Source: Eledone cirrhosa (lineage: Eukaryota). Taken from it: a stretch of DNA of 64,000 nt. Every line of letters begins with the position of its first letter. Position 1 is the stretch's first letter. Shown here piece by piece: positions 15,884 through 53,557 of the stretch. The position numbers were made by a program, and so were the translations under genes. The notes under the pieces were generated by a model that ran no database searches, had not been told where the DNA came from, and saw only the letters and a list, made by a program, of their open reading frames with translations. The stretch spans positions 92,256,001 through 92,320,000 of the forward strand of contig OZ024741.1 of assembly GCA_964016885.1 (NCBI GenBank), given 5' to 3'.

Positions 15884-15929
<46 letters not shown>

Positions 15930-16046
15930 ATAATTTGCATATTACTGAGGAATGTTATGTGTATATGTAATTAACGAAAGATGTTAAATCATAAAGCAAG
16001 CAGATCAATTTGAAGCACATTTTGGGATATTACTATAGAGTCTATA

Positions 16047-17872: not shown

Positions 17873-18065
17873 GTGGGCAGTGGATTGGTAGAATCATTAG
17901 AGCATTGAACAAAATGTCATGTGATATTTGATTATAACGCTTTGCCTTTCATCCTTCCCAGCTCGATAAAATAAAGTACCAGTAATACATTGGGGTCGAT
18001 TTAATCGACTTTCTCTTCCCTTCAAATTGCTGACCTTGTGCCTAAAGTAGAAACAATTATTAATA
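17873..18065 (+). mobile_element. SINE family A variant
   Basis: Head gggcagtggattggtagaatc, central domain and gaccttgtgcctaaagtagaaacaattatt tail. Confidence 0.75.
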
Positions 18066-18084
18066 TTATTATTGTTGTTGTTTT

Positions 18085-18119
<35 letters not shown>

Positions 18120-22439: not shown

Positions 22440-22810
22440 ATTGATGATAGCTACATTATATTATATGGTATAACATAACATGGGTATTGTTGATCTGTAT
22501 AGCTGGTAATTCAAATCTTTCAGTAAGTTAAAGACATCTATGGTTGCTGGTCTATAAATGTTAGCAGCAATACTATTCAAGAACTTTGTGATCCTGACAA
22601 TTGATCTCAAAGAGGTTCCTCTGCTCAGCATTGTGTGTCTGTTAACATTGTTCATTGGGTGACTCTTTAATCCAAGTAAACTTGACCAGATGATTATGTT
22701 GATGATGATCGTTAATTTCAATGGAGCAGTCTTTTTGATGTTGAGCCACATTCCAAATTGAATCTGAATTTCTCTGCCAAACTTGCCTGAAATCCAATCC
22801 TAATGGTTAT
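22440..22810 (-). mobile_element. Degenerate CR1-like LINE 3' fragment
   Basis: SLRSIVRITKFLNSIAANI...NLLKDLNYQL weakly resembles CR1 ORF2 C-termini. Confidence 0.35.
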
Positions 22811-24133: not shown

Positions 24134-24166
<33 letters not shown>

Positions 24167-25438
24167 CATAAATTTGATAGTGATGCTGATTGTTAACAAT
24201 AAAACATTACAGATCATAATTACTCTGTGTTTTAAAATTAAAAGAAACATGATTTGATTTAACCACTGTGTTGAGTTAACCCAAGCCTGGTTTAGATGGT
24301 AGTTCAACCATCAATATTTATTTTTTTTTTCAAATTTGTCAATACAAGTTATATGGGAAACATAATTTGATTTGATCTCTGTCTCATCAATTATTTTTTT
24401 TCTTCATTTTATATATTCATTTATTTATTTGTGGATACAGTATGGCTGAATAGTTAGAGAGTTTGCTTTACAATCATAATGCCCCAGGTTTGAACCTAGT
24501 GTGGCATCTTGGGCAAGTATCATTTAAATAACACTCAGAAACCTTATGAGTGAATCTAGGTAGACTAACTGGATGCTCATTGGATGGACTATTTGTAATT
24601 CAAAGGGCCTTCCTTGTCACACACAATGTTAGACTGAATCTCTCCAATAACTGCATTAAGGGTACACACGCCTGTGGAATGCTCATCCACTTGCACATTA
24701 ATTTCATGAACAGGTTGCTCTGTTGATCAAACAACTGGAACATTCATCGTCGAAACTGACGAAGGTCCATTCCAATTTTCTTTTTTTTTAAAATCTGTTA
24801 ATACAAGTTTAAATTAACAGAACAACACTTTATTTGCATTATGTGAATGTTAAGTGTAAGCTTGAATATTTTTCTTTCCAATGGATCAGCTATGTTGTGG
24901 ATCTTATTCACCTAATTGGATATTTTCCCCACTTTTTAGTCAGGGAGGGAAGGGCAATGCCAATAAACCCCCCTCAGGGCCTCTAAAACTGGTGAGAGGA
25001 AGGATAGAAGGAATCTTTAAACTGAAACCTGGCCCCCATGCTTGCAACAGATTGGATTCTGCTGAGGGCCAGTTTGTGGCATTAAACCAGGCAAAGGATT
25101 AACTCTACCACCCAGATTGATCCTAATCAATGTAAATCTCTAAATTGATTTCCTCATATTAATGATCCACTGGATTTCCAATTTGAGTTTGCTAATTATC
25201 ATTGATTGATTCGCTGTGCAGATTTTCTTTTTTTTTTTTTTCTTTTTTTTTTACTGATGAGTCAGCTATGCCTGCCATTCTCTTCCTATGTGGTTAAGGA
25301 GTTTGCTTCACAGCCATGTGGTTTAAAGTTCAGTCTCGCTGCATGACACCTTAGGCAAGGGTTTTCTACTATAGCTTCATCCTGACCAATGCCTTCTAAG
25401 TAAAATTTGGTAGACAAAATCTGTGGAAGCTCATCATA

Positions 25439-25523
<85 letters not shown>

Positions 25524-26294
25524 AATAAGTACTGGGGTTAATATGATCAACAAAATCCTTTTGAGGCTGTGCCCACAAAGCTTTTCAGGTCCTCCAAACT
25601 ATACACCTGGCCTTAATGCTTGCTAAAGGCATCCATGGTGGATGATGTTAAATCAGTCACTTCACTGAAGACAGTGAGGGGGCAAAGACCTTTCAACAAA
25701 ATAGTGGGTTTTCATTAAATTTTACCTTTCCTTTTATTCAATCTTTGTAAATATTGGAATTTCTATGAAAAAATTTTTTTTAAAATTCAATTAAAACCTT
25801 TTTCCAATAATCTCTTATTATATTTAATTATATTTGTTGGTCCAGGAGGGGTGAGCAGATGGCCGTTAAGGTCAAACACTAGACTAAATGCCTTACAGTG
25901 TTTAGATCTGTTTGTCGCAGTTCTGAGTTCAAATCCTTAATCCTGCCACAAGAGTATCAGTAATTTACCAAGGCCAGTTCAGACACCTAAAAATAATTTG
26001 TTAAAACAAATCAGTAACTATTGTCAATAAAAATTGTTCAAAATCATCTTAATTTATGAAATTTGTATTCTGAAAGGGAAACATTTTGGAAAATTTGAGG
26101 AGAGAAAGAATGTGTGTGTGATTTAAAGTTACTTGAACAAAACTGATTTTGAGGAATGAAAACCCAGCATTTTTACTATATTGATGTAATAAGCACTTTA
26201 AAAGTTTCTGACAAGCTTTTAATTTACAGTTAAAGCCATTTTACTTCACTTTTATTGATAATACACTTGAGAAATGATGTGAATATTATAACAA

Positions 26295-26388
26295 TTATTT
26301 CCTCTAAAATATAGGGTCTTTCTTATAAACATTATTAATATGAATCAATAATATTTATAAGAAAGACCCTATATTTTAGAGGAAATAA
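26295..26388. repeat. Perfect ~35 bp inverted repeat abutting a SINE dimer
   Basis: ttatttcctctaaaatatagggtctttcttataaa at 26295-26329 and its reverse complement at 26354-26388. Confidence 0.9.
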
Positions 26389-26390
26389 TA

Positions 26391-26703
26391 ATCCCGCCGA
26401 GGTTAACTTTGCCTTTCATCCTTCCGGGGTTGATAGAATAAAGTACCAGTAATGCATTGGGTAATTGCTGGCCTTGTGCCAAAAGTAGAAACAATTATTA
26501 ATATGAATCAAGGGTGGTGGATTGGCAGTATCGGTAGAGGGTCAGACACCATGCTTTGCAGCACAGTTACGTCCCTTTACGGACTGAGTTCAAATCCCGC
26601 CGAGGTTAACTTTGCCTTTCATCCTTATGGGGTCGATAAAGTAAAGTACCAGTAATGTACTGGGTAATTGCTGGCCTTGTGCCAAAAGTAGAAACAATTA
26701 TTA
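26391..26703 (+). mobile_element. SINE family A tandem dimer (truncated + full)
   Basis: Two copies, each ending gaaacaattattaatatgaat. Confidence 0.85.
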
Positions 26704-26753
26704 ATATGAATTATAACTCAGGTGTAATTATATCTATATACTACACTCAGTGG

Positions 26754-27062
26754 CAAGGGTCAAGAACCTGTAACTCCAGAGCCACACTACCCAAGTGGCT
26801 CTGAATCACTGAATTTTTTTTTTTTTTTCAATTTTATTTTATTAAATCTACATTCTTGTATTAAAATCAAAGTCAGACATTGAAGCAATTTCAGTTAAGA
26901 TTCAAAGTATCAAAAATCGTATTAAGAAAGACATTAGCTAAATTCATGTGTGTTTTTTTTTTAATGTATTTTTGTTTATAATAAATTATGTGGCTCCAAT
27001 AGTCCCAATTATTGTTTTTAGCTAAAAATGGCTCTTCTGATTGAAAGGGTTTCCAACCCCTG
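26754..27062. mobile_element. Probable hAT (Charlie-like) MITE
   Basis: Imperfect TIRs caagggtcaagaacct / agggtttccaacccctg (CAGGGGT-type ends); 8 bp flanks ctcagtgg and ctccatga match at 5 of 8. Confidence 0.5.
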
Positions 27063-28704
27063 CTCCATGATTATGCGCTATAAGAGAACTGGGCCTTGTT
27101 TCACCACATAAGTGTATCAAGAAGGATTCACAAAGGAAAACTAAATTCAAACTACATTGTTACTGATATTTCAATATAAAAAAAAAAAATTGGTGTCTGT
27201 TTCATATAATAATAAATAAATATATTTAAAACAAAATATGATAATGAAAATAATCATGTATTTATAACAAACTTTAATTTGATGTTAAAAATAGCTCTGC
27301 TTAAATTGCTTTCTATTAAAAATAAAACCCTAAAACAATTGTTTAATTGCAGTTTTTTTTTAAATTGTTTCATTGAACACTACTTATCTTCAAATAGCTG
27401 TGAGATGAGGTGCATAAAGTTACTGTGCAATACACTATTTTATATACATCCTTTCAGATATTGCTGAAGGAAAAAAAAGTTGTAAATAAAAATGTTATAA
27501 AAATTAATTCTGGCAATCTTTCTTTTCACTTTTAATATTGTTTTCAATAATCATATTTTCATTAATTCAAATAACAGTTGCCATTACAATGGAAAAGCGA
27601 ACCATTATTTCCTCGAGGATTGTTATGTTGGTCTCTCTAGAGCATATTCACTTCTTGGGGTAAAGATAAAAATAATAGATAGCAACTAACAAGATAGAAG
27701 AGTTGACAGTGTGTAACAAAGATCATCTTACTGAAGACTACACCTTCAGTGCTATCTGTGTAGACCTTACATCTCTCGAAGCAAACTTTTCATGAAAAAT
27801 GCAATTTCGAAAAATTATGTATTTCATGGTTTTCTAGAAACTTCCAACAATCTTTTAGTTTTTAAAGTAACCATCCTGAAATTCTGGAGATATTATCAGT
27901 TATGAGTATAATATGCTAGAAAAGAAAAATGTATTTGTTATAAACCACGAATTTTACAATGCAAATGTTAAAACATCTATACAGACAAGTGCCTTTCAGA
28001 GTATACAAAACACTTACACAAGCACTATCAAACAACTCTATTTACAAATACTCTAGAAAAATGCATGACTTAACAGTTCAAGTTAACCCTGATTATTACA
28101 GAACTATGGTACCTATGTAGTCAATCAAATTACTAATTAAGATACTCAGATTCATTGGTCTAGATAAGATACACTATGGCTCCTCCAAATGGAGTTTCAC
28201 ACAGCATATTCCAATTTATAATAGTTTATCATATGAGGTGCTGTATTACAAGTCTGTTCAATTTGTTCCTGGGTGGCTGTTGTCATTTAGCCCCAGGTCA
28301 GCTTTGAATGAGCAGATCTATGGATTATAGTTGACCATCTAACCAACTATCTACAATCCATTGCTTTTGATACACCAACAACCACCTAATTAATTACCAT
28401 AAGATACATTCCAGTATGCAGTGACTAATTGATGAGATGCAGTCTGGCAGTTTGGGCATGTTCCACCTTTTGTAGTAGTTTTCTAGGTTCTTTAGTGTGC
28501 CTGTACATATAATGGTAAGGATTGTGTGGTTAGAGGCTTGCTGCTCCATACATGTCCAGGACTTAGGCTTGCTGCTCCATACATGTCCAGGACTTAGGCT
28601 TGCTTAAGCAGGTATCTTGGCATGCCTGAAACATTTTCAGAGAGAAACATCTGCATTCCCTGTTGTAAAATGTAATTGAGTGTGAACATTTTCTCTGACT
28701 GGAA

Positions 28705-29625
28705 GTGGTGGATTGGCATAGAGTTACGGCCCTTTATGGTCTGAGTTCAAATCTCACCGAGGTTAACTTTGTCTTTCATCCTTACAGGGTTGATAAACAA
28801 TGCACTGGGATAATTGCTGGCCTTGTGCCAAAAGTAGAAACAATTATTTTTTCTCTGACTAATTTTTTTTATTGATTTGACATTTTGTATTATATATCAT
28901 ATTTATTTTATAAATCGTGTCTATATGTGCAATAAAGCAGTCTAAAGTGATATATTGTGTCACACTGATTCAGCTTTAGAACTAAACTAAAGGTACATGT
29001 GTATGTGGAAATATTCAATGAGTTACACTATAATAGTTTCAGATTTAGGCACAAGGCCAGCAATTTTTTTGGTGGGGAGGGGAAAATCCCTAGTGCATTA
29101 CTGGTGCTTTATTTTATCGACCCCGTAAGGATGAAAGGTAAAGCTAACCTCGGCGGTATTTGAACTCAGATCGTAAAGGGCCGTAACTCTATGCTGCAAA
29201 GCATAGTGTCCTACGCTCTACCGATACTGCCAATCCACTACCCTCACCACTTACACTATAATAAAAAATAAACTGTCTGTAATTCAAAGGTCCGACTGTG
29301 TCAGATATTGTGTTATACTATTTGGTTTTGGGAAGTATGTCAAGGGTACGTAAGTCTGTGGAATGCTCAACATCTTATACATTAGTTCATGATATTGAAC
29401 AACTAAATGCTCATCATCAAAACCGACGGAGGATCCATCATAATTGTTTCTACTTTTTGGCACAAGGCCAGCAATTACCCAGTACATTACTGGAGCTTTA
29501 TTTTATCGACCTCCGTAAAGATGAAAGGCAAAGTTAACTTCGGTGGCATTTGATCTCAGAACGTAAAGGGTCAAAATCTATGTTGCAAAGCATGGTGTCT
29601 GACGCTCTACCGATACTGCCAATCA
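28705..29625. mobile_element. Cluster of SINE family A copies (+28705-28848, -29035-29243, -29441-29625)
   Basis: Family motifs present; TSD ttacactataat at 29023-29034 and 29251-29262 around the middle copy. Confidence 0.8.
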
Positions 29626-30047
29626 AGCTACTTATTGTACCTCCTGAGCAAGCCAAATATACAGAGAGTACAAAAACTTGTGATGCCATTTAAAAACTGA
29701 AACTCTGTTTTATGTATTCACTAATTTGCAATAATTCTCTCTAATATTGGCACAAGGCCATCAATTTCAGATAAGGAGAAAATCGACCACACCGACCCCA
29801 ATACTTAACTGGTTGATCAAACAACTGGATGCTCATCGTTAAAATTGATGGAGGATCCATCACTGTTACAGTGTTAGTGAGTGAATTTGTCAGGTAAACT
29901 AGATAGAAGAGTCTTTTAATTATATGTTAAAATTGAGTTAACTTTAGTAATTAAGCTTGTGATGAAACAGTATTTGATGATGTCAATGACATTCCTCGGC
30001 TTTGAAGAAACAACAGGAAATGAATAACAGTGGTATTACATACTGTA

Positions 30048-30231: not shown

Positions 30232-30573
30232 AAAAACCGTAAATATCACCTCAACTAATTTTGTTTCTCTTAGTGTCCCTGCTTTGGCTGCTTCTAATTT
30301 TAGTAGTGATAATTTGCAAGAGGTCAGTTGAGGACAGCTTCAAGATATTTTAAGATTCGACAAATTGGAAACAAAGCCTTTTAAATAAGACAGTGAATTA
30401 GCAGAGCCTTTAGAAAGTCAAGTAAGCTGGTTTGTAGTATTTGTTCTGGTCATCTGGCACTCTGAGTTCAAATCCCGTTGTTCTTAATAATATTGAGGTT
30501 AACTATATTGCAATTTAAGATAGTAAAGACTCCATCGTCACGATAAGAATTTGATAACAGTATCAAACTAGCT

Positions 30574-31773
30574 AATTTCTTGGATGCATCTCTTAATCTT
30601 GACACTGGCCTATATTACCCTTACCATAAAAACAATGAGAACCTAAATCATGTTAACTTTAAATCTAACCATCCTACTAATATCAAGAATGCTATAGTTA
30701 GTAATATTGGAAAAAGAATATCTAACCTATCTTCTAATAAAAACATCTTTGATGCTAACACCAATTACTATAATAACGCACTTTCTAAAGCCGGCTATCC
30801 TGATAAAATCAAATATAGTAAAGAAACAAATTCTAGAAGAACTTACAGTAGAATAATTAATCATGATCATTCCAATAACTTTAATAAAAGACCTAGATAC
30901 AAAAACATAATCTGGTATAATGCTCCTTTCTCCATCTCTATTAATAACAATATTCCTAAATTATTCTTTAGTGCCTTAAATAAATGCTTCCCTCCCTCAC
31001 ATATCTATAGTAAAATATTTAACAAACACACCATAAAATTTTCTTATTCTACATCCTCCAATATTTCCAACATTATCTCTAAACACAACAATAAAATACT
31101 AAATACTAAATCTCTTCCTTCCAACACTGAATTTCATAATAATAGTAATAGTACTCCCGACGTCATTGTAAACCCTAGGCTAATTTCTGCAAACCCAAAT
31201 ACAACGTCAAACACAACTTCGCTAAATGTTCATAACCCAACTCTAAATCAAGAAACTATTATTCCTATCGCAAACAACTTCTCCAATCCAATTCCTTCTA
31301 TAGATAACACTAGGTCACTCATTAATAATCTCTCTAATTGCAATTGCAATTGCCCTATTAAAAATAAATGTCCTCTCAACAACCATTGTCTTGATAAAAA
31401 CTTAATTTATGAATGTAAAGTTATAACTAACACCAATTCCTTCACCTATTTTGGCTCCACTTCCACCTCTTTTAAAGCTCGTCTCTATAATCATCATTCA
31501 TCTTTTAAATACAAACTTAAAAGAACCAACACGGCTCTCTCAGAACTCATATGGTCCTTGAAAGACAAAAACATTAAATATACCATCTTTTGGAAGAAGG
31601 TTTCTTCTGCGTAATCATACTTGAACAGCTCTCTATCTAAAATCTGCAATCTCTGCCTAAATGAAAAATATACCATTATCTCTAATCTAGATTCTATAAT
31701 AAATAGACGAACTGACTTGTTTTCTATCTGCTTGCATAAATTCCATAAAACATTTCACAAAGTATACAGCTAA
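30574..31773 (+). pseudogene. Penelope-like RT/GIY-YIG ORF remnant
   Basis: The frame of ORF 30580-31614 continues past one TAA to a stop at 31771-31773; the RT catalytic core is missing. Confidence 0.85.
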
Positions 31774-37641: not shown

Positions 37642-37731
<90 letters not shown>

Positions 37732-37994
37732 GTTAATGATAATGCTTTCTGTATTAACCACAAGGGTTTACATAAAGTAGTAGACATTAAGGACAGTACA
37801 GGACAATACAGGACGGTACAAATGAGCATTTCTGCGTGTAAAAAAAACAGAGGATGTAATAAAAAAAATAACAATGAAAAATTCCCCAATAGGGGGGAGA
37901 CTTCCGAGAGACATTTGTGGAGAAAGCCCATTAAAAGGCCACAGTTACCCTGACCACCAGGGCAAGTGCCCTCTCCCAGTTTTCCACCTTTAAT

Positions 37995-40900
37995 TTACAG
38001 ACACATACTCAGAGTAGGCCCATTCAGCCGAGCCACACTTGCTTCTCTCACCCATCTTTCAACAAAATGCTGGGAAGAGAGCACTTCCCTCTCTACCCTG
38101 ATTTTCCTTTTCAAATGAAATTTGAAAAAGTTAATCAGGGCATCACCGAAGAGGTAAGTGCTCGTCTTCAGCCCTTTCAAACGTGTCCACCATACTATCT
38201 CTTTCGCCATGGCCACCAGACAAATAGAAACTGCCTGCCCTTTCCGGCTAAAGGAAGCGGGCGGGGAAATCCTCACGATGGACTCAGCTGATAGCTGGAT
38301 CCGTCCTACACGTGACAGCAGGTGTTCGACATAAACCCACAAGTCAGCAATGCTCGGACACTGGACGAGTGCGTGCAGAACGGTTTGGTCGCCCTGCGCG
38401 CATCTCGGACATGCCCGGCTGACGGCACCTCCATGCCTGTAGAGTTTATCCCGAACTGGCAAAGCTCCTCGGTAGCACTGCCAGACCAGGGATTTCTGAA
38501 AGTTGTCCATAGGCCCCGGCCCGAAAGTTCTTCCGAAGAGATTGGCTAGTTGATTTTCGTCGACGCCTAGAGTTTCTCCAAGTACGTCGTCGCTCTTCCC
38601 CTCCACTAATCCTCTATAGAACGCCAAGGTGGAGTTTCCACCGATCACATTGCCCGATTGGTCGAGGGCTGTGAGCGCCTGAAGACATTCCAGTCTCCAA
38701 GCGCTCCCTCTCGGTCTTCGCTTGACCCAGGACTGCAGCTCCGTCAAGGAGACGAGCTGGGGAAAGACGTGTCTAGCAAACGGCGACCACACCTGATCAC
38801 CGTCGAGGAAGAGGTGGAGATGTCGTAGCCTGGGCGCGTGTCTGCGCATCATCAGCCACGGCATTCCCAACCTTCCACGTAGCGGGTGTTGACAGCAGAT
38901 GGACCTCCTCACCATCGGAGCGCGTCCCTTCCACAAAAAGCGAAAGAGCAAACGCTCCAGCGCAGTCAGGCGGGCTTAGAACAAGGTACGACGGTCAGGC
39001 GGTAGTAGATGACGGACGCGATGTACGCGTTAGCCACCTCCGCTCGACCTTTCAGGGATAGCTTCATCTCCGCCCATTTCTGGGTGAGAGAAGCCACCCT
39101 GCTCGTCACCTCGTCCCAGTGTTTGTTCGTCTGGAGGTCTGGACCGAACCAGACCCCTAGCAATTTAACCGGTCCATCCGTCCAGCGCCCGACGACGCTG
39201 TTGGACGGCATGGACCTGCCTCTCCAGGTGCCGAGCTGCAGGCCCACTGAATTTTCCTGGTTGATCATTGCTCCTGTCACCGCTTCGTATTCTCTTTGTG
39301 TAGTGCCGATCGCCTCGATGTGTTTGGCGTTCGACACCACTACGGTGACATCGTCCGCATATGCTGACACGGATCTTCCGCATCCTAGTTCGCGCGGGAC
39401 CCCACTCAACGTCTCCAGTTTGTGCAGTAATGGCTCGAGAGTCAATACGTACAAGAGGGACGAGAGGGGACATTCTTGGCGGACCGAGCGCATGATGTTG
39501 AACGGTTCCGAAAGGTGACCGCTCACTCTCACCACAGAGCAGATGTCGCTGTGCATGGCAGCGATCCAGCCTCTGAAGACGGGCCCAAAGCCAGCCGCCC
39601 TCAGGACTGCCGCTAGGTAACGATGGTCGACTCTATAGAAAGCTTTCGACTGATCTAAATGGATCAAGGACCCACCCGTGCCAGGTTCCCTAGCTACTCT
39701 CTCTACGATGTATCGCATGAGGTGGAGGTTGTCAGGGATGGATCTGTCGGGAATGGCGCACGTCTGCGCCTCTCCCACCAGACCACCAACGACAAGCGCC
39801 AACCTCTTTGCTAACACCTTGGCCAACATCTTGAACTCTATGTTTAGCAGGGTTATGGGCCTGAAATTATCTATGTTATCCCCCTTGTTTGGATCCTTTC
39901 TCAGCAGCGCCACAGCTCCTCGGCTCACAGAGCTGGGAATTCTCCCGTTCTGTTGCCAGTTGCAGTAGATGTCCGCCAAGAGGCCTCCGAACAAGTCTGG
40001 CATCCGTACGTAAAGTTCATAGGGCAGACCATCCAAACCAGGCGATTTACCCCTTGTGCAGCCAGTAATTGCTTCCCGTACTTCAGCGGCTGTTATCTGC
40101 TTTTCGCAACACCTCGCCTCAGTGGCCGAGAGCCACGGCAGTCCGTCGAGGTAGACACTAAAGTCCATCCCTCGATTAGGCCCGCCGCTGCCCCCGAACA
40201 GCTGGGCGAAGTGTCGCTGGAAAGCTTCACACATTTTCCCGGGATCGAGTAGCATGCGCCCGTCGTGGTCCACCAAAGACCGGATCGTGGCTTTGTTGCC
40301 ACGACGCGCCTCCGCTACTCGGGCCCATTGAACGGCTTTCGTCCCCTCGTGTCTGAGAGCACGCACCCTAGCTCTGACAACGCAGCCTTCGTGCTTTGCA
40401 TTGAAGAATTGGTCAAGGGCCAATTTCGTCGCAAGTATGTCGGTCGCGATGCCTTTGCTTAGTGCCTCGTCTAATTTTCTAACTAGTTCTCCCTCTGCTC
40501 TATTTTTCTCTATTGCTAAAGCCTTACTAAACCTAATGGACTCTATTCTAATCGCTCTTTTCAGAGCAAACCACCACTTGTTGTTGACGATGGCCCCCGT
40601 CAACGCCCGCTTAACTAGTTCGCTAATCCGGTCTCTGTAGGCCTTGCGCGCTGGTAAGGACGCGTTTAGCTTCCAGTAGCCGGGTCCTCGTCTATGAAGC
40701 CTATCTAAGTCAAGCACACAGATCACGAATTTGGGGTCCGTGTAACTGACTATCTTGAATTGTGGACAGCCTATGCTAGACCTATCTATTTCCCTACAAA
40801 ATACTCTATCTAGATATGATCTGGATGACCCTATGCGGTTTGTCCAAGTCCACATTGGCACATTCGGGAAATCCAATCGGTACCTGTCAGACAGTTCAAA

Positions 40901-41413
40901 ACACCTGAGCAGGCTGGTGAGGCTCTTGCACCCTCCTCCCCTATTCGCTAATCCCACACAGTCCCAGCGTGCATCTAAGATCCCGTTCCAGTCGCCCACT
41001 AACACTAAAGAGCGGGACGTTCCAAGAAAGGTCTCCAGACGCCGGAAGAAATCAGGCCGCCCTGCTCCTGTCGGGGCATAGACAGCCACTAGCCTGAAAG
41101 CTTGCCCATCTCCGCTGGTCACGTCCAGCACCATCAACTTACCTTCTGGGTCCAGGAAGATGGCCCGTATGGCGAGATCCAAACTTCTCCGAAAAAGCAC
41201 AGCAACTCCTCCCCCCGATCCAGGACGGCTGGGAGATGCGTACACATCGTAGCCGCCGAAGATCGGTACGAAGGCCCGTGCTTCGGAGATTATGGTCTCG
41301 CTGATGGTCACTACATCTATGTTTAGTGACCTGAGGTCGTTGAGCAGGTGGCCCTGCTTCCATGACGACCCCAAGCCACGCACATTTATGCTGCCTATTC
41401 TGAGTGAGGTCAT
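37995..41413 (-). pseudogene. Tx1-like ORF2 (APE endonuclease, RT, C-terminal zinc finger), one frameshift near 38960
   Basis: SINVRGL, ISET, GDWN and SYLDRVF (APE; SDH reads TDP); KSPGLDGLP, FRPITLLN and YADD (RT); CPRC...H...C. Confidence 0.93.
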
Positions 41414-41447
41414 GTTGAAATGGAGTGGAAAAGATGGGGAAGACCAC

Positions 41448-43368
41448 TTACCTTACTTCTCGTAGAGGAAGGATGGTTTGTCCATCCTTTTCACTGCTTG
41501 TGGCCTCCTCCGGAAGGATGTTCTTATAAATCCTCCTGGAGAGTGTTTGTCGGAAGTCTCCGATGTCTTTGGGGAATTTTTGTTTTAGTGTCGTGTACGT
41601 TTTCTGTGTGATGCGAGTGATTTGTATGTGTGGAGGTGGTGTGAACTTTTGGGTTGTTGTGTAGTCTTTTTCTGTGATGCTGGTGTTGTGTTGGCTGTAG
41701 TGTAATAATTGGTTGTTGTTCAAATTTAATGCTGTGTAGTGTGGATCGTTTTGGTTGTTTTGTTTTGTTTGGGTTTGTTGTGGGTTTGTTTCTGTTTCGC
41801 TTTTTGGTGACTTTTGTGGTGTTGGTGATGGTAGTGTTGGGGTTAATGATGGTGATGGTGTTGGTGTTTGTGGTGATGGGGTTGGTGATGCTGGTGTGGA
41901 TGGTGGCATATCTGTCCTAACTTTTTTGTTTGATAGTCTATTTGTTTCCCTCTGTATTTTGTTTTTGGAGGGGGAAGGAAGAGGATTTTTTCTTTTTTGG
42001 TTTCTTTTTTTTTCTTTTTCCCGATACCGTTTCCCACTCTTCGTCGTCACAATCAGTCTCCAGTTGCGATAGGTCGGGGAGTGGAAAATCCTCCACAGGC
42101 GTTGGTTTTGGTTGTGGCGTGGTGGATGGTGTAGGCGCTGGTGCTAGTTCTGGCGCGTTGGGTGGTGGTGGTGTTGGTTTTGCTACTGTTGCTGGGGTTG
42201 TTGCTGTTACAGTTGCTTCTGTTGTTGCTGCTACAGTTGTTGCTGCCATTTCTGCTGCTGGTGGTGTTGATGGCTGAGTCACTGGGGTGGGTAAGAGAGG
42301 AACCCACCTAAGGGCTTTCTGTCCTTAGGTGGGTTCCTTCACCACAAACGACACACCTAGGCCTTCTGCCCTCGACGATTACGGTGAGGTGGCTGCCGTC
42401 AGTGAGGTCTATTACTTCTGGGATCTCCTCAATGCTTTTTTGGTCCGCTTGGATCAGAAGCTCCATCCCAGATCCGGACCAGTTCTCCTGCTTTTCTTTC
42501 GCTATTTCGATTATCTTGGTGTTGGCCTCGATGCCGGCGAGGACGGTAGCCATTAGCCAGGGAATTTCGATGGCCGGTGGAACGTGGGTCACTCTGATCT
42601 TCACGAGTCTCTGGCCACAATAGCTTGGGACGAGTGTGAAGTCGTCACTTCTTAATGGGGCCATGGAGTGTTCTCTGGCCTCCTGTGGTGTTTCAAAGAA
42701 CACGTCCACGGTTCCATATTTCTGCCCACGTCTGATGTGAGTTTTTTTGCCCACACGTGTCCCAAAGCTTTTTGGATTTGGGACTCGGATGCCCGTTCCA
42801 CTCGGCGCGATTTTATGTTAATCGTCCGATAAGACACGGTGCATAGGCGCCGATGCTCCATTTTATTAGGGGGGGGGAGGCTGACCCTGTACCCATCTTT
42901 CTTTACCATTCTTTTGGCTTCTTCTAATTCCTCCTGAGTTACCTGTAATGCTTCGCACTTTTTTGCTACTCTGGCAAAACTCAGGGTTTTCTTATTCTCA
43001 TTGTTACTGTTGTTGTTATCGTTATTTTTGTTATTGTTAATTTTAGTTTCATTTGTGGTGGTGGTGGCGTCAGTGGTGTTTGGTGTGGAAGAGTTCATTT
43101 TGGGTGAATTCATTTCGATATCACGAGATAATTTATTTTTTCTTTTGTTTCTGTTGTCGCTGTGGTGGTGGTGGGGGTGGCGGCTTCAACACCTGCAGTC
43201 ATTGGTAATGGCGGGAAATGAATGTCTGCCTGAGACAAATTTAAAATATTGCTATTGCTTATATTTTTAGTGTTGGCAAACGTAGTAATATTTACAATGG
43301 TGGTGTCGGTGTGAGGTTAGTTTATGAGGAAGGCTCTCAGCTACTGGGTTCAGCTGTGAGTCGGCCAT
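41448..43368 (-). pseudogene. Tx1-like ORF1, frameshifted
   Basis: Probable ATG at 43368 (MADSQ); fragments 42652-43113, 42308-42754 (EGRRPRCVVCGEGTHLR knuckle), Pro/Thr-rich 41938-42282 and 41448-42050; homologous to copy 2 ORF1. Confidence 0.8.
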
Positions 43369-43584
43369 GATTTTTCAAAGAAATTTTTTTTTTTTTAATA
43401 ATTATAAAAGTTTTAATTTTGGGCTCAAGGCCCTAATCTTTTTGAGTGTCCTTTTCAGAAAACAATGTATGTGCACTTATATACAGTTAACAATAAACAT
43501 TTTCCATAAATGGCAATTTTAAACAACTGAAAACAACAAACCTTTGCGGAGCTCACGATGATACAATTTACTACGTAGGTCGCC

Positions 43585-43628
<44 letters not shown>

Positions 43629-43901
43629 TTTCATTTATTGGCCACAGAGGCCGACATATAGGGGACAATACAAAAGACTGGGACAGTGGGGTTTTACAGA
43701 AAAATCGAGTAAACAATATGAATAAACAAAGTAACAATAACAAAGTAACAATAAAGTAACAAGAAAATTACAACAAGAAAAAATTCCCCAATAGAGGGGA
43801 TGACCACCTAGGGTTCGCTCAGGTACCCCACCAGTCCTGAACGACCCGACGCTTCGAGAGCACCCTGGAAGGGCACCCCTCTCCTCTTCAAATTTACCTA
43901 C

Positions 43902-46900
43902 CTACAGCCGCATGACCAGAGTAGGCCCACTCACACGGGCCATTCTCGCCACATTCACCCACCTTTCAGCAAATGTACTGGGGGGCAGCACTTCTCTCTC
44001 CACCCTCACCTTCCTTTCCAAGTGAAACTTGAAAAAGTTGATGAGGGATTGGCCGAAGAGAGAAAAGTGTCTGTCTTCAGTCCTTTCAACCTCGTCCACC
44101 ATACAACCTCTTTCGCTACTGCCACCAGACAGAGGAAAATTGCCTGCCCTTCCTGGCCAAAAGAAGGTGGCGGGTCGATCTTCACTATGGACTCGGCCGA
44201 TAGCCGGATCCGTTCTACACGCGACAACAGCTGTTCAACATAACTCCACAAGTCAGTAATGCACGGACACTGGACGAGTGCGTGCAGAACGGTTTCGCCG
44301 CTCTGCGCGCATCTCGGACAAGTCCGTCTGACAGCACTTCCGTGCCTGTAGAGTTTATCTCGAACCGGCAGTGCCCCCCGGTAGCACTGCCAAGCGAGGG
44401 ATTTTTGGAAATTATCCATCGTCCCCGGCTCGAAAGTCCTCCAGTACAGACTGGTTAGTTCGACTTCGTTGACTCCCAGAGCCTCTCCGAGTGCGTGGTC
44501 GCACTTTCCCACCACTAATCCTCTATAGAACTCGAGAGTGGAAGTTCCACTGACCGCATTGCCCGCCTGGTAGAGGGCAGTGAGTGCCTGGCAACATTCC
44601 AGATGCCAGTCACCCAGCCTCGGTCTCTTCTTGACCCAGGACTGCAACTCAGTCAAAGAAACGAGCTGCGGAAAGGCCCGTCTGACAAACGGCGACCACA
44701 CCTGTTCACGGTTTAGGCAGAATATCTGGAGATGCCGCAGCCTCAGCGCGTGCCTGCGCATCATTAGCTACGGCATGCCCAGCCCTCCACGTAGAGGGTG
44801 CTGGCAGAAGATGGACCGCCTCACCAGCGGAACCTGACCTCTCCACAAGAATTTGAAGAGGAGCCGCTCCAAGATGGCGAGGCGCGAACGGGGATAAGGG
44901 ACGACAGTCAGACGGTAGTAGATGACGGACGCGATGTACGCGTTTGCCACCTCCGCCCGACCTTTCAGTGATAGCTTCATTCCAGCCCATTTCTGGGTGA
45001 GACTGACTACTCTGCCCGTCACTTCGTCCCAATTCTTATCCACCTGGAGGTTTGGCCCAAACCAAACCCCTAGCAACTTTACTGGTCCGTCCGTCCAGCG
45101 CCTAACGACGCTATTGGACGACATGGATTTGCCTCTCCAGGTGCCGAGCTGCAAGCCTACTGACTTTTCCGGGTTAAGTTTTGCTCCCGTCAACCTTTCA
45201 TATTCCTCCAATAAGTTGCCGACCACCTCGATTTCTGAGGTGTCCGACACCATCACGGTAACGTCGTCCGCATAAGCCGACACAGCCTTTCCGCGTCCCA
45301 GTTCGAGCGGGATGCCCTGCAACAGCTCCAGCTTCCGCAGTAAAGGCTCGAGAGTCAATACGTACAGAAGGGAGGAGAGAGGGCACCCTTGACGAACCGA
45401 TCGGGAGACCTGAAACGGTTCCGAGAGGTGGCCATTAATTTTGACCATCGAGCAGGTGCCGCTGTGCATTGCAGCGATCCAGCTTCTGAAGACGGGGCCG
45501 AAGCCAGCCGCCTTGAGGACAGCCTCCAGGTACCGATGGTCGACCCTATCGAATGCTTTCGATTGATCTAAATTGATCAGAGCCCCACCGAAGCCAGGTT
45601 TACACCCTACCCTCTCTATGATGTATCGCATTAGGTGGAGGTTGTCGTGTATGGACCTGGTTGGGATTGCGCAAGTTTGCGCCTCCCCAACCAAATGCCC
45701 GACGACAAGCGCCAACCTCTTCGCTAACACCCTGGCAAAAATCTTAAACTCTGTGTTGAGTAGAGTTATGGGCCTGAAATTGTCTAATGTGTCCCTCTTG
45801 TTCTCGTCTTTCCTTATCAGCGTCACTACGCCCCGGCTCACAGAACTGGGAATACTCCCGATTTGCTGCCAGTTGCAGTAGAGGGCTTCGAGGAGATTGG
45901 AGAACAAGTCTGGCATATTTACGTAAAGCTCGTAGGGCAGACCATCCAAACCGGGTGACTTGCGCCTCATGCAGCCTACAAGGGCATCCTGAATCTCGGC
46001 TGAAGTAATTGGCCTTTCGCAGCGCCCAGCGTCAGCCGTCGAGAGTTGCGCCAAGCCATCGAGGTAGGGACTGAAGTCTGCCACCATCTCTGACCCGCCA
46101 CTTCCCCCGAACAACCGAGCAAAATGTTGGCGAAAGGCCTCACACATCCTCTTGGAATCGCTCAGCTCGTGCCCGTCTCGGTCCGTCAAAGACCGAATCG
46201 TGGTTTTATTACCACGCTGCGCCTCTGCCATGCGGGCCCATCGAACAGATTTGGTTCCCTCGTTTCTCAGAGCACGCGCCTTAGCTCTGACAATGCAACC
46301 TTCGTGTTTCGCATTGAAGAAATGGTCTAATGCCATTCTCGCCGCTAGCACGTCAGTTGCAATGCCACTACCAATAGCCTCGTCTAACTTATCTACCAAC
46401 TCCCCCTCCTTTCTATTTTTCTCTAATGCTACTTCTTTGCTAAACTCTATCAACATTACTCTAATCTCTCTTTTGAGAGCCCCCCACCATCTATTGTTGA
46501 CGACTCCCCCTGTCAACTTTTTCTTAACTAAATTGTTAACCTGGTCCCTGTAAGCCTTACGTGCCGGAAATGACATGTTTAGCTTCCAGTAACCAGGTCC
46601 TAACCTACGCGTCTTATCTAGGTCGACCATACAGATCACAAACTTGTGATCTGAATAGGCGACCGTTTCAAAACGTGGACAGCTTACACTATTTCTGTCT
46701 ATTTTCCTAATGAATATCCTGTCTATATACGATCTAGATGACCCTATGCGGTTAGCCCAGGTCCACACTGGCGCATTAGGGAAATCTAGTCAGTACCTGT
46801 CAGACAGTTGGAACTGGCTGATCAGGTTCTTGAGGCTTTTGCACCCCCCCCCCCCGCTCCTATCGGATACTCCCACACAGTCCCAGCGTGCGTCTAAGAT

Positions 46901-47332
46901 GCCGTTCCAGTCCCCCGCTAACAGTAAAGGGCGAGACGTACCCAGAAAGGCTTCCAGGCGTCTAAAGAAGTCCGGCCGTCCTGCCCCAGTAGGAGCATAG
47001 ACGACCACCAGTCTAAAGGCACCACCTTCATTATTGTTCACGTCCAGGACCACCAACTTCCCGTCCGGGTCCCGGAAGATCGACCTTACCTCGAGATCCA
47101 GGCCTTTCCTAAACAGCACTGCCACCCCGCCTCCCATTCCCGGCCGGCTAACAGATGCAAAGATCTGAAAGTAGTCGAAAATGGGGGCTAGTGCGCGCGT
47201 GTCGGAAATCCTGGTCTCGCTGACTGCAATTACATCCATTTCTATAGACCTGAGGTCGTTGAGCAGGTGACCCTGCTTCCAGGATGATCCCAGGCCTCGA
47301 ACATTTAAACATCCTACTCTTAATACGGCCAT
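43902..47332 (-). pseudogene. Tx1-like ORF2 with two nonsense codons (46790, 44768) and a frameshift near 44060
   Basis: ORFs 46790-47332, 44768-46768 and 44006-44764 are one frame; CLNVRGL, GDWN, YSDH, QGCPLS, YADD, CPRC..H..C. Confidence 0.93.
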
Positions 47333-47367
47333 GTTGGCAGGTTAAACAGAGGGAGAGGAAGGTTTAC

Positions 47368-49337
47368 TTACCTTCCGGGCTCTTGTGAAGGTCGAGTGTT
47401 TCGACCTCCATAGTTGGTGGAGTTTCTTTTGGGAACCCCTTTAAAAGTCTTGATGTAGGTTTTACGTTCTGGGTTCCCACGTCCCGAGGAAAGCTGTCTC
47501 GAATCTCTGTAGAAATCGTACGACATTCGCACCAGAAACAAATCTTCCGGCACGCGAAATGTGCTCGATTAAAAAATTTCCCCTTCTGTTTGTAATTCTT
47601 TACTTTGTGCTACGAGAGCCATCAATTCCTTGTCAGCCCTTCTGACGAGCACGAAGTTTTGTATGTTTTGTTGGTGCGATTTTATTTGTTTGCGTGACTA
47701 TAGTGATGATGGTTTTGATGGTGTTGTTTCGGTTGCGTTTGTGTTTGTTGTGAGTGCGGTGTCTGTGGTTTCAGATGTTTGTGTGTGTATTTGTTCTTGC
47801 GTCTGTTTCGTTTGTTTGCGTTTGGGGGATTCTGGTGATGGTGGTGGTGGTGTTGATGTTGGTGTTATTGGAGAGATGTTTGCGTGGGTGGTGTCTGCGT
47901 TTTTTATTGTGGGTGCTTTTGTGCTTTGTGGAGTTTTTTTTTTCTTTTTGTGTTTCCTTTTTTGGATTTTGGGGGATTTTGGATTTCCCTCATCTTCACT
48001 ACTGGTAGATGAGGGGTCTGTGTCTGTAAGTGTGTCTGTATGTATGTTTAAGGTTTTATTGGTGTGTGTATTTTTGGGGGGAGGGGGAATTTGACAGCTT
48101 TCCTCGTTTCCCCCCTGGGTGGTCAATGTTGGTGGTGGTTTTTCTATTGGTGTTGTTGTTGGTGGTTTTGCCGGTGCAGGTGTTGGTTGTGGTCCGAGCC
48201 CCGGCGTCGGCAGCAGTGGAGCCTTTCGACCCCTTGCCTCTTTCAGCAGTTGAGGGCAGAAGGCTCGCAAATGGGTTTTTTCCCCACAAACAAAACACTG
48301 CGGCCTTTTGCCTTCGGTCATAATGTGAATGACCGTCCCATTCTGAAGTCGGATGTGGTCTGGGATTGTCTTCACATTCTCGGGCCTGATCTGGAGAAGG
48401 ATCTCCAGGTCAACCCCGGACCAGTCCTCTCTGGCCGTTCTGGTCACTTCTATAGGGACTGTATCCGTCCCCTCCACAATCACACATCCCAGAAGCCACC
48501 ACATATCAAGTCCTGGTGGGATTCTGGGAATGCGGAGACGGGCCGTTCTTTTTCCCATGTGGGAGGGGTACATTATGACCGTGCTGGTTTTGCAAGGAGT
48601 CATGGCGTGTTTCATCGCGAGGGCTTCTGACTTTAACAACACCGAAATGGTGCCGTACTGTCTGCCCCTCTCTATGTACTGGGTGTCTTCTCTGATGCAC
48701 CTCAGCGCGACTTCGACATCTTCTTGTGGGATTAACGCTGCCCTTTTGGTTTGTGCTGAGATGCATCTATAATGCACCGTTTTGCGCTCCACTGCTTCAA
48801 TAGCTTCTACCGGGACAGTTAAGTTGGCCCAAGTTTGCTCTTGCTTGATGAGCTTCCATGCCTGGGCCAACTTTTCATCTTTGTTTGAGAGGTCCATGTT
48901 GAAGCATGGCCTCTTTTTTGCTGCTGCCGCAGCGAAAGTGGTCTTGTTTTCGTTGGGGGTGTTGTTGTCGTTGTTCTTGTTGGTGTTGTTGTTAGCACTG
49001 TCGCTGTTATCATTGTTGTCTTTGCTGCCACCGTTGTTCTCGGTGCAGTTGGTATTGTTGCTGTTGGTGTTGTCGCTATTTGTTTTCATGTTAGTGGTGT
49101 TGATATTGTTCTTGTATTTGTTATTTTTTTTTTGTTATCTGTATTTTCGTTGTCGCTGTTACTGTCATTTTTTTTCAAATTAGAGTTCTTATTGGTATCA
49201 TTGGTGTCTTTGTTTACCTTGTTTGTGGTGGTGTTTGTGTTATCAATGTGTGTTAATTTCGCTGTAGCGCTCCTCTCAACTTTTACGTCGTTGTCGCACG
49301 ACAGCCGACATATCGCTGGGGGGCGTGGCTCAGCCAT
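47368..49337 (-). pseudogene. Tx1-like ORF1 with CCHC knuckle, disrupted
   Basis: Probable ATG at 49337 (MAEPRPP); Asn/Thr-rich N-terminus; main frame 47698-49089 with CFVCGEKTHLRAFC; C-terminal piece 47368-47553. Confidence 0.82.
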
Positions 49338-49544
49338 GTTTTTTTTTCTTCGTAAATTTTTTAACATGTAAAAAAAAAGTTCAAATATTTGGGCCAAAAG
49401 GCCCAAATATTATACTTTCCCCTACAGGGGGCAAAGTCTTAGGGCTTATATCCCTTACACAACAAGAAATATTTAACAACAAATAATTTAAACAGGCAAA
49501 TAAAGCGACTTACTGTGAGCGAGCAAAATACGTCCGCTTAGACC

Positions 49545-49585
<41 letters not shown>

Positions 49586-51589
49586 TTTCTTTATTGACCA
49601 CAAGGGTTGACATCAAGAAAAACATTACAGACGACACAGGACGGTACAGGACGGTACGATGTGGGTTTTGTTCGTGTAAAGATTTTTATTATTTATATAA
49701 GAAAAGAAAAGAAAAAGACATAGAAACATATTTATATATAAACAATAAAAATGAAAATTGAAACAATGAAAAATTCCCCAATAGGGAGGGAACCTCTGAA
49801 GGTTACTCGTGGCGAAAACCACACAAAAGACCACGGCCACCCTGACCACCAGGGCAAGCGCCCTCTCTCAATTTTTCCATTTCTCAAACTACAGGCGTAT
49901 ATTCATAGCGGTCCCGTTCACTCGGACCATTCTCGCTACATTCACCCACCTTTTAACAAACTTGCTACAAGGCAGCACTTGCCTCTCCACCCTGATTTTC
50001 CTCTTCAAGTGAAACTTGAAAAAGTTAATTAGGGATTCGCCGAAGAGGAAAGTGTCTGTCTTTAACCCTTTCAACCTTGTCCACCACACAATCCGTTTCG
50101 CCATGGCCACCAGGCAGATGAAAACCGCCTGCCCTTCCTCCTCGAAGGAAGACGGCGAGACCATCTGCACAATGGACTCAGTCGATAACCGGATCAGTCC
50201 TACACGCGACAGCAACTGTTCGACATAGCTCCACAAGTCAGAAATGCTCGGGCACTGAACGAGTGCTTGCACGACGGTTTAGTCGCTCTGCGAGCATATC
50301 GGACAGGCTCGGCTGACGGCACTTCCGTGATTGTAGAGCTTATCTCGAACCAGCAACGCTCTCCGGTAGCACTGCCAGGCCAGGGATTTTTGGAAGTTAT
50401 CTATAGGCACTGGGCTGAAAGTTCTCCGGAAGAGAGCAAACAGCTGATCTTCTTCGACGCCCAGGATCTCTCCGAGAACGGCGTCGCTCTTCCCCTCCAC
50501 TAGTCCTCTATAGAACGCCGAGGTGGATGTTCCACCGATACTGGTGCCCAGCTGGCAGAGGGCAGTGAGCGTCTGGAGACATTCCAGTTTCCAAGCGCTA
50601 TCCCTCGGTCTTTTCCTGACCCAGGACTGCAGCTCCGTCAAGAAGACGAGCTGTGGGAAAACGTGCCTGGCGAACGGCGACCACACCTGTTCACCGTCAA
50701 GGAAGCACCAGAGATGTCGCAGCCTCAGCGCATGTTTGCGCATCATCAGCCATGGCATGCCCAGTCCTCCACGCAACGGGTGTTGACAGCAGATGGATCG
50801 TCTGACCATGGGAGCACGTCCCTTCCACAAAAAGCGGAAGAGGAGGCGCTCCATTTTGGTGAGAGTTGGGCCGGGGAAAGGGACGACGGTGAGGCGGTAG
50901 CAGATGACGGATGCGATGTACGCATTCGCCACCTCCGCCCGACCTTTCCGACCCATTTCTGGGTGAGGGAGGCTAGCTTGCTCGTCACCTCGCTCCAGTT
51001 TTTCTCCATCTGGAGGTCCGGTCCGAACCAGACCTCGAGCAATTTAACCGGTCCGTCCGTCCAACGCCCCACGACGCTGTCGGACGCCATGGACTTGCAT
51101 CTCCAGGTGCCGAGCTGCAAGCCCACCGACTTTTTCTGGTGTATCTTTGCTCCTGTCACCGCTTCGTATTCCTTGAGAGCGGTGCCGAGCATCTGGACGT
51201 GTCTAGTGCTCGACACCACCACGGTGACGTCGTCGGCGTAAGCCGACTCGGATCTCCCGCATCCTAGTTCGCGTGTGACGCCCCTCATCGCCCCCAGTTT
51301 GTGCAGTAACGGCTCGAGAGCCAATACGTACAAGAGGGACGAGAGGGACAACCCTGGCGAACCGAGCGCATGATGCTGAACGGCTGCGACAGGTGACCGT
51401 TCACCCTCACAACTGAGTAGATCGCAGTACATCGCAGCGATCTAACCCCTAAAAACGGGCCCGAAACCGGCTGCCTCGAGGACCGCCGCCAGGTACCGAT
51501 GGCCGACCCTATCGAATGCTTTGGATTGATCCAAGTTGATCAGGGCCCCACCCGTGCCAGGTTCCTTAACCACCCTCTCTATGATGTAT
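49545..51589 (-). mobile_element. 5'-truncated Tx1-like copy 3 (RT C-half to 3' end)
   Basis: YADD, WTDGPVKLL and CPIC..H..C in broken frames; (ATT)n tail at 49545-49583. Confidence 0.9.
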
Positions 51590-52280
51590 AATAATGATTT
51601 CTTTATTGGCCACAAGGGCTGACATCAAGAAAAACATTACAGACGGCACAGGACGGTACGATGTGGGTTTTGTGCGTGTAAATATTTTTCTTGGCCACAA
51701 GGGCTGAAGAAATCATTATTATTATTGTACCTCCCTGTATGATCTGAGTTCAAATACCGCCGAGGTTAACTTTGCCTTTCATCCTTACGGGGTCGATAGA
51801 ATAAAGTACCAGTAATGCATTGGATAATTGCTGGCCTTGTGCCAAAAGTAGAAACAATTATTATTATTATTATTCAAAACCTGTCGAGGTTAACTTTGCC
51901 TTTCATCCTTACCAGGTCGATAAAATAAAGTACCAGTAATGAACTGGGTAATTGCTGGCTTTGTGCCAAAAGTAGAAACAATTATTATTATTATTATTAT
52001 TATTATTGTTGTTGTTGTTCTAATAATAATAAAGCACGTAGGGCAGACCATCCAAACCTGGCGATTTACCCCTTACGTAGTCAGACATCGCTTCCCGTAT
52101 TTCACCTGCTGTTATCGGCTTTTCGCAATACTGCTCTGCGGAAGTCGAGAGCTGCGGCAGTCCCTCGAAGTATGCACTGAAGTTCACACTCCGATCCGGC
52201 CCGCCGCCGCTCCCAAACAGTTGAGCAAGGTGCTGCTGAAAAGCTTCACACATCTGCAAAAATTGAATAATAATAATAAG
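51590..52280. mobile_element. Jumble of Tx1 3'-end fragments, SINE A copies and an internal Tx1 RT fragment
   Basis: 51590-51690 repeats the copy 3 3' end; SINEs at 51740-51874 and 51882-52006; 52035-52258 encodes MCEAFQQH...KSPGLDGLPY and has (taa)n on both sides. Confidence 0.8.
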
Positions 52281-52858: not shown

Positions 52859-53205
52859 GCGTGTGCGTGTGCGTGTGTGTGTGTGTTTACGTGTGCATAC
52901 TTACATTTACGTATTAGCTGTGCTAGGGCGAGAAATAAAATTCTAATTTTATTTGTGATATTCGGCAAGGCCCGCCGTAACTCGTCCGTTGTGCAAATGA
53001 GGCTACTCAACCGATTTCTACTTAAGAAAATACTATATATTTTCAACCGTACAGATTGGCATAGGTGTACAGTCCTGATGAACAGTAATGACCCAGAAAC
53101 ATGTTGATCGTTCCTCAAGGCCAGTGTTGAACTAACATGTGATGATCGGTCACCGTCACGGCAAAGATCGAATCGGGCCGTTTGTTTACAAACGAATCGA
53201 ACATT

Positions 53206-53557
53206 CGGACGCCATGCTTTCCAGCATAGTTACGTCCCTTTACGATCTGAGTTCAAATCCCGCCGAGGTTGACTTTGCCTTTCATCCTTACGGCGTCGAT
53301 AAAATAAAGTACCAGTAATGCATTGGATAATTGCTGGCCTTGTGCCTAAAGTAGAAACAATTATTAATGTTGGCAGTGTCGGTAGAGGGTCGGACGCCAT
53401 GCTTCCCAGCATAGTTAAATCCCTTTACAGTCTGAGTTCAAATCCCGTCGAGGTTAACTTTGCCTTTCATCCTTACGGGGTCGAATAAATAAAGTACCAG
53501 TAATGTATTGGAATAATTGCTGGCCTTGTGCCAATAGTTGAAACAATTATTAATGTT
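53206..53557 (+). mobile_element. SINE family A tandem dimer
   Basis: Two copies, each followed by attattaatgtt (TSD of the second copy). Confidence 0.88.

Follow-up and report, generated by a model that had tools for sequence, protein, structure and literature searches.

The 64,000-nucleotide stretch of Eledone cirrhosa DNA considered here (assembly GCA_964016885.1, contig OZ024741.1, positions 92,256,001 to 92,320,000 of the forward strand; hereafter the window, with positions counted from its first nucleotide) contains an array of long interspersed elements (LINEs) of the L1 clade, called Tx1-like below, and copies of an abundant short interspersed element, SINE A. Both kinds of elements end in a similar small predicted 3' hairpin, and, judging from their sequences, they are a probable stringent LINE/SINE pair of the L1/Tx1 clade in an animal, such L1-clade pairs having been met only in plants and algae in the literature found. 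A bolder reading, to which we give a probability of roughly 0.55, is that an animal lineage of Tx1-like LINEs uses strict recognition of a 3' hairpin, that this hairpin has outlasted switches of tail and target, and that a tRNA-type SINE captured it and thereby would have reached more than 120,000 copies.

The LINE array of the window consists of three Tx1-like copies, arranged head-to-tail on the minus strand in the order copy 3, copy 2, copy 1, so that the (ATT)n tail of copy 3 adjoins the 5' end of copy 2 and the (ATT)n tail of copy 2 adjoins the 5' end of copy 1. The copies are mutually 74-78% identical and represent three separate families, copy 1 belonging to family B, copy 2 to family C and copy 3 to family A. 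An earlier note, made from the letters of the window, had described a 3' stem-loop in each copy and in one additional fragment, and all four were read on the minus strand just as it had claimed.

37708-43584, minus strand: Tx1-like LINE copy 1 (family B), of full length, its reading frames broken, 5' end at 43584, recognised by Exo_endo_phos, RVT_1 and zf-RVT matches and by its tail
37756-37768, minus strand: 3' hairpin of copy 1, AACC-CTTGT-GGTT, read from the sequence and present in the minimum free energy (MFE) fold
43585-49544, minus strand: Tx1-like LINE copy 2 (family C), full length, recognised by its domains and tail, with human L1 ORF2p as the closest solved structure
43640-43652, minus strand: 3' hairpin of copy 2, GGCC-TCTGT-GGCC, present in the MFE fold, its loop a private variant
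47698-49134, minus strand: region of open reading frame 1 (ORF1) in copy 2, the translation of which contains a CX2CX4HX4C knuckle, with atlas matches to zf-CCHC and ZCCHC3-like RNA-binding clusters
49545-51589, minus strand: Tx1-like LINE copy 3 (family A), truncated at the 5' end, with the tail abutting the 5' end of copy 2
49597-49607, minus strand: 3' hairpin of copy 3, ACC-CTTGT-GGT, read from the sequence and present in the MFE fold
51588-51692, minus strand: short extra family A 3' fragment with the hairpin GCC-CTTGT-GGC at 51609-51619

Two of these hairpins are not typical of their families. The TCTGT loop is private to copy 2, the other family C ends gathered having mostly CTTGT, and the ACC/GGT stem of copy 3 is a minority form, GCC/GGC being found in 28 of 39 family A ends.

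More than 20,000 3' ends in two sister clades of Tx1 LINEs carry a stem of 3-4 bp with a CUNGU loop, followed by AAUAAA and a simple-repeat tail. A pattern for the ATT-tailed clade, anchored outside the stem and unconstrained at the 14 positions of stem and loop, matched 13,060 times vs 0 for the reversed control, and the hairpin is not due to chance; among the 100 matches listed, a hand tally gave the loop CTTGT in 96 and the three inner pairs kept in 97. With a second pattern, 7,587 ends of further families were obtained, which have the form TGCC-CTNGT-GGCA, lie for the most part behind related ORF2 sequence and are followed by tails of (TATC)n, (TA)n or (TC)n or else by a fixed target. The middle base of the loop is A, C, G or T depending on the family while the stem stays. 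Of 136 LINE ends, 134, 134 and 131 retain the respective inner three pairs, and of 143 SINE ends 140, 139 and 136 do so, loop and first 3' G being preset in the search pattern for the latter. The hairpin lies inside the MFE fold of all 8 ends folded. Twenty type representatives are 92.5% paired, three of their four pairs change on both sides, and their covariation is 0.47 vs 0.17 in shuffled and at most 0.15 in slid alignments, figures that are not to be turned into probabilities because the rows are related. The double changes are T-A/G-C/A-T at pair 4, G-C/A-T at pair 3 and, at pair 2, C-G in the LINEs vs G-C in the SINE. It had been claimed in the earlier note that the stem varies while pairing and loop are kept, and conservation over two Tx1 clades with compensatory changes bears this out for the inner three pairs, with few independent events behind it; the fourth pair is often broken.

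The hairpin may be lineage-specific rather than ancestral, because it stood before AATAA in none of 52 distant relatives examined (80 metagenome relatives with 24-50% identity were fetched); several of these relatives end in poly(A), and some of the contigs stop short of the 3' end. In public sequencing runs, contigs of two other organisms contain parts of the LINE end, and the rows listed for them show no stem differences, the stem being near the edge of the stretch; the single RNA run among these runs has a share of 0.05.

SINE A is about 188 nt long, has A and B boxes and contains no internal T4 (TTTT) in the two copies checked. Its tail pattern gave 124,811 exact matches in the 3.0-Gb genome vs 0 for the reversed control. 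The window contains the following copies.

16046-16233, plus strand: full-length SINE A with the A box at 16058, the B box at 16123, the tail hairpin GGC-CTTGT-GCC at 16208-16218 and the duplication ATTACTATAGAGTCT
26511-26700, plus strand: full-length SINE A, in tandem behind a truncated copy
29029-29244, minus strand: long SINE variant with an extra C-rich segment before the same tail, recognised by sequence comparison
51728-52007, plus strand: two SINE A copies in tandem, both 5'-truncated and with (ATT)n tails, next to the LINE array
53205-53552, plus strand: two tandem SINE A copies, recognised by sequence comparison

Sequence and position of the tail hairpin of the first copy agree with the earlier note, except for the flanking a that it had given, the next base here being T. 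As for the SINE head, ARAGORN found no tRNA gene in it, and Rfam gave no tRNA match at E ≤1 over 15900-30000. The central part of the element may resemble that of a Nin/Deu-domain SINE; short words of this body had no relevant match in the searchable supplements of PMC4824008 and PMC4758252.

The last 30 nt of the SINE were scored against the ends of different LINEs, with 2,944 ATTAT-preceding sites, the top scorers of which look like decayed SINE tails, as background. Seven Tx1 family ends gave z from 2.8 to 6.4, and one CR1, three RTE-like and two R4-like ends gave z from -0.7 to 1.4, which is background; the question raised in the earlier note, whether the SINE tail would fit another LINE clade better, is answered in favour of Tx1 for the ends scored. 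The scores of six of the seven Tx1 ends are reached by 3 to 9 of the 2,944 background sites, and that of family B by 32. Loop, spacing and a GAAA box align between the SINE and the Tx1 ends without gaps. From these comparisons it may be concluded that the SINE tail was very probably derived from Tx1. We consider it highly improbable that the likeness arose by chance or by convergence of short AT-rich ends beside a common microsatellite: it is true that only about 28 nt are shared and that an unrelated CR1-like family has (ATT)n tails as well, but the rarity of background sites reaching Tx1 scores and the gapless alignment speak against such an origin.

To which of the LINE families of the genome the SINE could belong was also considered with a census of reverse transcriptases, which sampled about 2 Mb of the 3,000 Mb, with 600 kb picked blind and the remainder surrounding search matches and the window, and met Tx1-like, CR1-like, RTE-like and R4-like families. 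The (ATT)n tail, which had been taken in the earlier note for a sign of the partnership, lost this value, because a CR1-like family with 8,535 exact 3'-end matches has it too. CR1 was rejected as a partner on account of its different hairpin, its background tail score and its want of real duplications, the 5 nominal ones of 33 being each at most 9 nt long or made of TA repeats. R4-like elements, which we take to be R4/Dong-like, were likewise rejected, having (AAT)n ends, the opposite orientation and no tail likeness; the RTE-like ends are (GAT)n. Family D was discarded as a dispersed driver with only 2 matches in a DNA search that skips common words.

The insertion signatures of the SINE and of the Tx1-like LINEs were compared next to each other. 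Duplications flank 53 of 115 full-length SINE copies vs 18 of 572 mismatched controls, with a median length of 16 nt; 45 of the 53 start with ATTAT, and 23 follow C. The two duplications measured for the ATT clade of Tx1 are 18 nt long and start with ATT. The word ATTA occurs within 24 nt upstream of 23 of 39 Tx1, 107 of 160 SINE and 1 of 34 CR1 junctions, the background being 14%, and SINE and Tx1 do not differ in this respect (p = 0.36); Tx1 junctions in the divergent ORF1 region were excluded from these sets, and the SINE set includes loci around Tx1 matches. Among the elements behind 102 Tx1 tails, 11 Tx1 heads and 11 SINE heads point the same way as the Tx1 tail, and 22 R4-like tails and 2 SINE tails are reversed. 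The ages of SINE and Tx1 overlap, median pairwise identity being 90.0 for the SINE, 90.0 for family A and 90.3 for family B. On target signatures, whose comparison had been proposed in the earlier note, duplication length and 5' ATTA agree, and the length of the ATT tract differs.

Taken together, these data make it quite likely that the SINE is mobilised by Tx1. With somewhat less assurance, we suppose that a Tx1-like ORF2p copies the SINE by recognising the predicted 3-4 bp CUNGU hairpin, as stringent LINEs do; recognition, binding and requirement of the hairpin we infer from the L2 precedent (PMC4176376, in its accessible part). According to this scheme, the SINE would be transcribed by RNA polymerase III from its A and B boxes, and ORF2p would then bind the hairpin. 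The endonuclease would nick the bottom strand opposite C|ATTAT, the freed ...ATAAT-3' end would pair with the AUUAU tail and prime reverse transcription (target-primed), and a second nick about 16 nt off would give rise to the duplication. The ATT-tailed clade (families A, B and C) seems the likelier driver, because loop CUUGU, tail and target are common to it and the SINE, and the tail of the SINE may have come from an ancestor nearer the TGCC/GGCA clade.

Several results weigh against this proposed copying by hairpin recognition, and the shortness of the shared segment given above is one of them. As regards the hairpin itself, the stem is weak, the folding z-scores being only -0.07 to -1.10 and no fold being distinct from shuffles, and the covariation, found in related rows, amounts to about four family-level double changes according to the tree and the SINE comparison. 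Pair 4 is unpaired in 42 of 136 LINE and 68 of 143 SINE ends, with A.C mismatches in family A and T.T in 62 of 143 SINEs, and the next outer position is almost never paired. Of the 100 listed SINE copies in which both sides of pair 2 have changed, 64 have A-T vs 64.7 expected from the margins, so that this hand tally gave no covariation beyond independent decay, as is expected for copies decaying after insertion; a SINE subfamily with the LINE-type C-G pair 2 was looked for and rejected, one of the 100 listed copies having this pair and no intermediate subfamily being present among them. Finally, the LINE hairpin abuts AAUAAA and could serve RNA processing instead.

An explanation of this kind, in which the SINE tail came from Tx1 and is moved by Tx1, with pairing between (AUU)n and target being decisive and the hairpin kept for another job (3' processing beside AAUAAA, ORF1p binding or RNA stability), appears unlikely to us. 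It would account well for a hairpin that in the aligned LINE ends stands immediately upstream of AATAAA, for a thermodynamically unremarkable stem and for an outer pair that tolerates mismatches. At the same time, the SINE has dropped AATAAA yet retained the loop and, by way of a double swap, an inner stem, as would fit selection acting on the hairpin and not on polyadenylation, and CR1 RNA also ends in AUU repeats, yet its insertion signature differs.

Other points on the same side concern the identity of the driver. The SINE tail is matched best not by the ATT clade but by family E, which has a (TATC)n tail. The ATT tails or tracts of Tx1 are longer than those of the SINE (median 20 vs 7 nt), and tracts of at least 12 nt were found in 73% of 59 Tx1 vs 8% of 39 SINE cases; this gap could come from longer RNA tails or from a driver family with looser requirements. 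The ATT-clade Tx1 duplications that are clean number only two, most other junctions lying in pure ATT tracts or being false ends. No L2, Nimb or Ingi reverse transcriptase was met in the approximately 2 Mb of the census, and for three minor CR1-like families and one R4-like family a reliable 3' end could not be given. It is also conceivable, albeit improbable in our opinion, that the SINE is driven by a LINE that has died out or escaped sampling, be it a further L1/Tx1 lineage less strict about its targets or a family of the L2, Nimb, Hero or CR1 kind, and that the ATT-clade families are mere relatives or neighbours of the true partner. The position of the SINE mostly at short ATTAT sites and of Tx1 in long tracts, the match with family E, the existence of a rare, older ATT-tailed lineage (2 matches) and the small census would all suit such a driver, as would the limited reach of a pattern for the SINE stem behind non-SINE sequence, which by estimate lets an unrelated upstream sequence through only about 4 times in 10. 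That pattern gave 555 matches, and the 100 listed, heterogeneous apart from one tandem array, revealed no better partner. Against an unsampled or extinct driver stand also the six non-Tx1 ends, none of which scored like the SINE tail, the indistinguishable 5'-flank signatures and the coincidence of SINE and Tx1 ages.

The label Tx1-like is given on the strength of the domain set, the likeness to human L1 ORF2p, the CCHC knuckle and the targeting; the outgroups of the tree are unnamed. ORF2 of these LINEs gave PF03372 (APE endonuclease), PF00078 (reverse transcriptase) and PF13966 (C-terminal zinc-binding, zf-RVT) above the cut-off, and in a comparison with solved structures only it resembled human L1 ORF2p with E of 4e-42 vs 2e-22 for R2. 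A CCHC knuckle in ORF1 is a feature of the Tx1 group of LINEs; here it has the form CX2CX4HX4C in translation, with zf-CCHC clusters matched at 0.92, and the Pfam search of the ORF1 region of copy 2 gave no match. Target preference and target-site duplication, further traits of the group, are represented here by ATT tracts, tandem arrays and 18-nt duplications. The only ORF2 relatives with a species name come from Argonauta hians (68% and 59%) and Acanthosepion pharaonis (47%). In a tree made by a quick method, with outgroups that include no named Tx1 references, the ATT-tailed and TGCC/GGCA groups form sister clades, and the Argonauta protein falls outside both.

The comparisons with known systems that follow are based on the accessible parts of the papers cited. 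Stringent LINE/SINE pairs are common, and of 58 SINEs tabulated, only three, from maize/sorghum and Chlamydomonas, have L1 tails (PMC3472496, PMC3747384). The pairs of maize LINE1-1_ZM with ZmSINE2 and ZmSINE3 and of Chlamydomonas L1-1_CR with SINEX-3_CR likewise consist of an L1-clade LINE and a tRNA-derived SINE sharing their 3' end (Ohshima 2012, PMC3472496; PMC3747384). The likeness of the monocot pair extends to a hairpin in which the stem varies, compensatory changes occur and the loop motif (UCU) is conserved, and its stringency was also deduced from sequences (PMC3472496). Differences from the plant and algal pairs are the animal host, the Tx1-like LINE with a target preference, a shared end of about 28 instead of 50-80 nt, the loop CUNGU and a tail of (ATT)n in place of poly(A) or poly(T). 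Stringent 3' recognition and mobilisation of the SINE by Tx1, as put forward in the earlier note, are supported as a proposal for this pair, while stringent pairs of the L1 clade as such had already been described (PMC3472496).

The crocodilian SINEU and Tx1-Mar elements resemble our case in that the SINE was likely mobilised by Tx1, as concluded from shared targets and overlapping ages (Kojima 2015, PMC4494074). The SINEU elements differ in their small nuclear RNA heads and poly(A) tails, and in the accessible part of that paper no LINE was found with the 3' terminus of SINEU-1 (PMC4494074); here A and B boxes are present in the head, and SINE and LINE have the very 3' end, a structured one, in common. 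Tx1 families such as Kibi in (TC)n, Koshi in (TTC)n and the crocodilian ones in (TTCC)n or (TTTC)n also insert into simple repeats, with no SINE partner having a shared hairpin given for them in the same accessible text (PMC4494074), whereas here (ATT)n, (TATC)n/(TA)n or a fixed repeat serve as targets. Eel UnaL2 and zebrafish ZfL2-1 and ZfL2-2 likewise have a 3' stem-loop before the end of the element (Hayashi 2014, PMC4176376), and in L2 it is bound by ORF2p, the loop giving specificity (PMC4176376). Those elements belong to the L2 clade and were proven experimentally (PMC4176376), whereas the present pair is of the L1 clade and is known from sequence alone.

In the Octopus vulgaris assembly, SINEs make up 11.6%, and 13 recently active L1-Tx1 families were reported (PMC13282606); the accessible text on its repeat annotation assigns no SINE partner, and the words 'partner' and 'mobiliz' are absent from it (PMC13282606). 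The accessible mollusc and SINE-domain literature gives L2 and CR1 partners in bivalves, or none. No published octopus SINE-Tx1 pair was found; Repbase and Dfam lay outside this search and may have recorded such a pair already. If animals do have a stringent Tx1-like lineage, it would be the counterpart of the stringent plant and algal L1s and would offer a direct system for studying how poly(A) alone came to suffice for mammalian L1. It would also provide an animal-side comparison with human L1 ORF2p, the structure of which is solved, with RNA-binding determinants testable by domain swaps, and it would identify what probably drives a SINE that is very abundant in the present genome.

Some additional observations were made on the same elements. 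At 51588-51726 of the window, the short 3' fragment of family A runs into an inverted hairpin copy with (ATT)4 on the opposite strand, a junction that suggests a template switch at the hairpin. A second hairpin, likewise conserved, CCCC-TATT-GGGG, is located at 37884-37895 (minus strand), with a variant near 43790 (minus strand), and occurs in the 3' untranslated region of many ATT-clade copies; it lies about 120-170 nt upstream of the tail, has 8,868 genome matches and was found in none of the SINE copies inspected. The 5' untranslated region of family B contains GGGC-CTTGA-GCCC at 43417-43434 (minus strand), followed by an A-rich stretch and ATTAT, in 6 copies, with a polarity like that of the SINE tail.

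Tx1 family F ends not at a microsatellite, but at a fixed sequence beginning ACTCTATATATACTA, which recurs about 5.7 kb upstream, and its copies are arrayed at a spacing of about 5.8 kb (array C1:4.229-4.259 Mb), so that by its sequence context it is classed as a sequence-specific Tx1. R4-like LINEs sit tail-to-tail with Tx1 (22 of 102 ends), several clades occupying the same microsatellite from opposite strands. In a young CR1-like family, an ORF of 945 aa is intact in many copies, which end in GTGC-ACCTGA-GCAC and (ATT)n and are without duplications. Other features of the window are a Kelch-repeat exon at 9540-10193 (plus strand, Pfam), an RTE-like fragment at 16975-17547 (minus strand) and an ORF at 30547-31614 (plus strand), which has no Pfam match and is presumably reminiscent of a Penelope GIY-YIG end. 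Outside the window, the SINE tail alone has given rise to a tandem array of a 37-bp unit at C1:126428923-126429326, which comprises at least 11 units.

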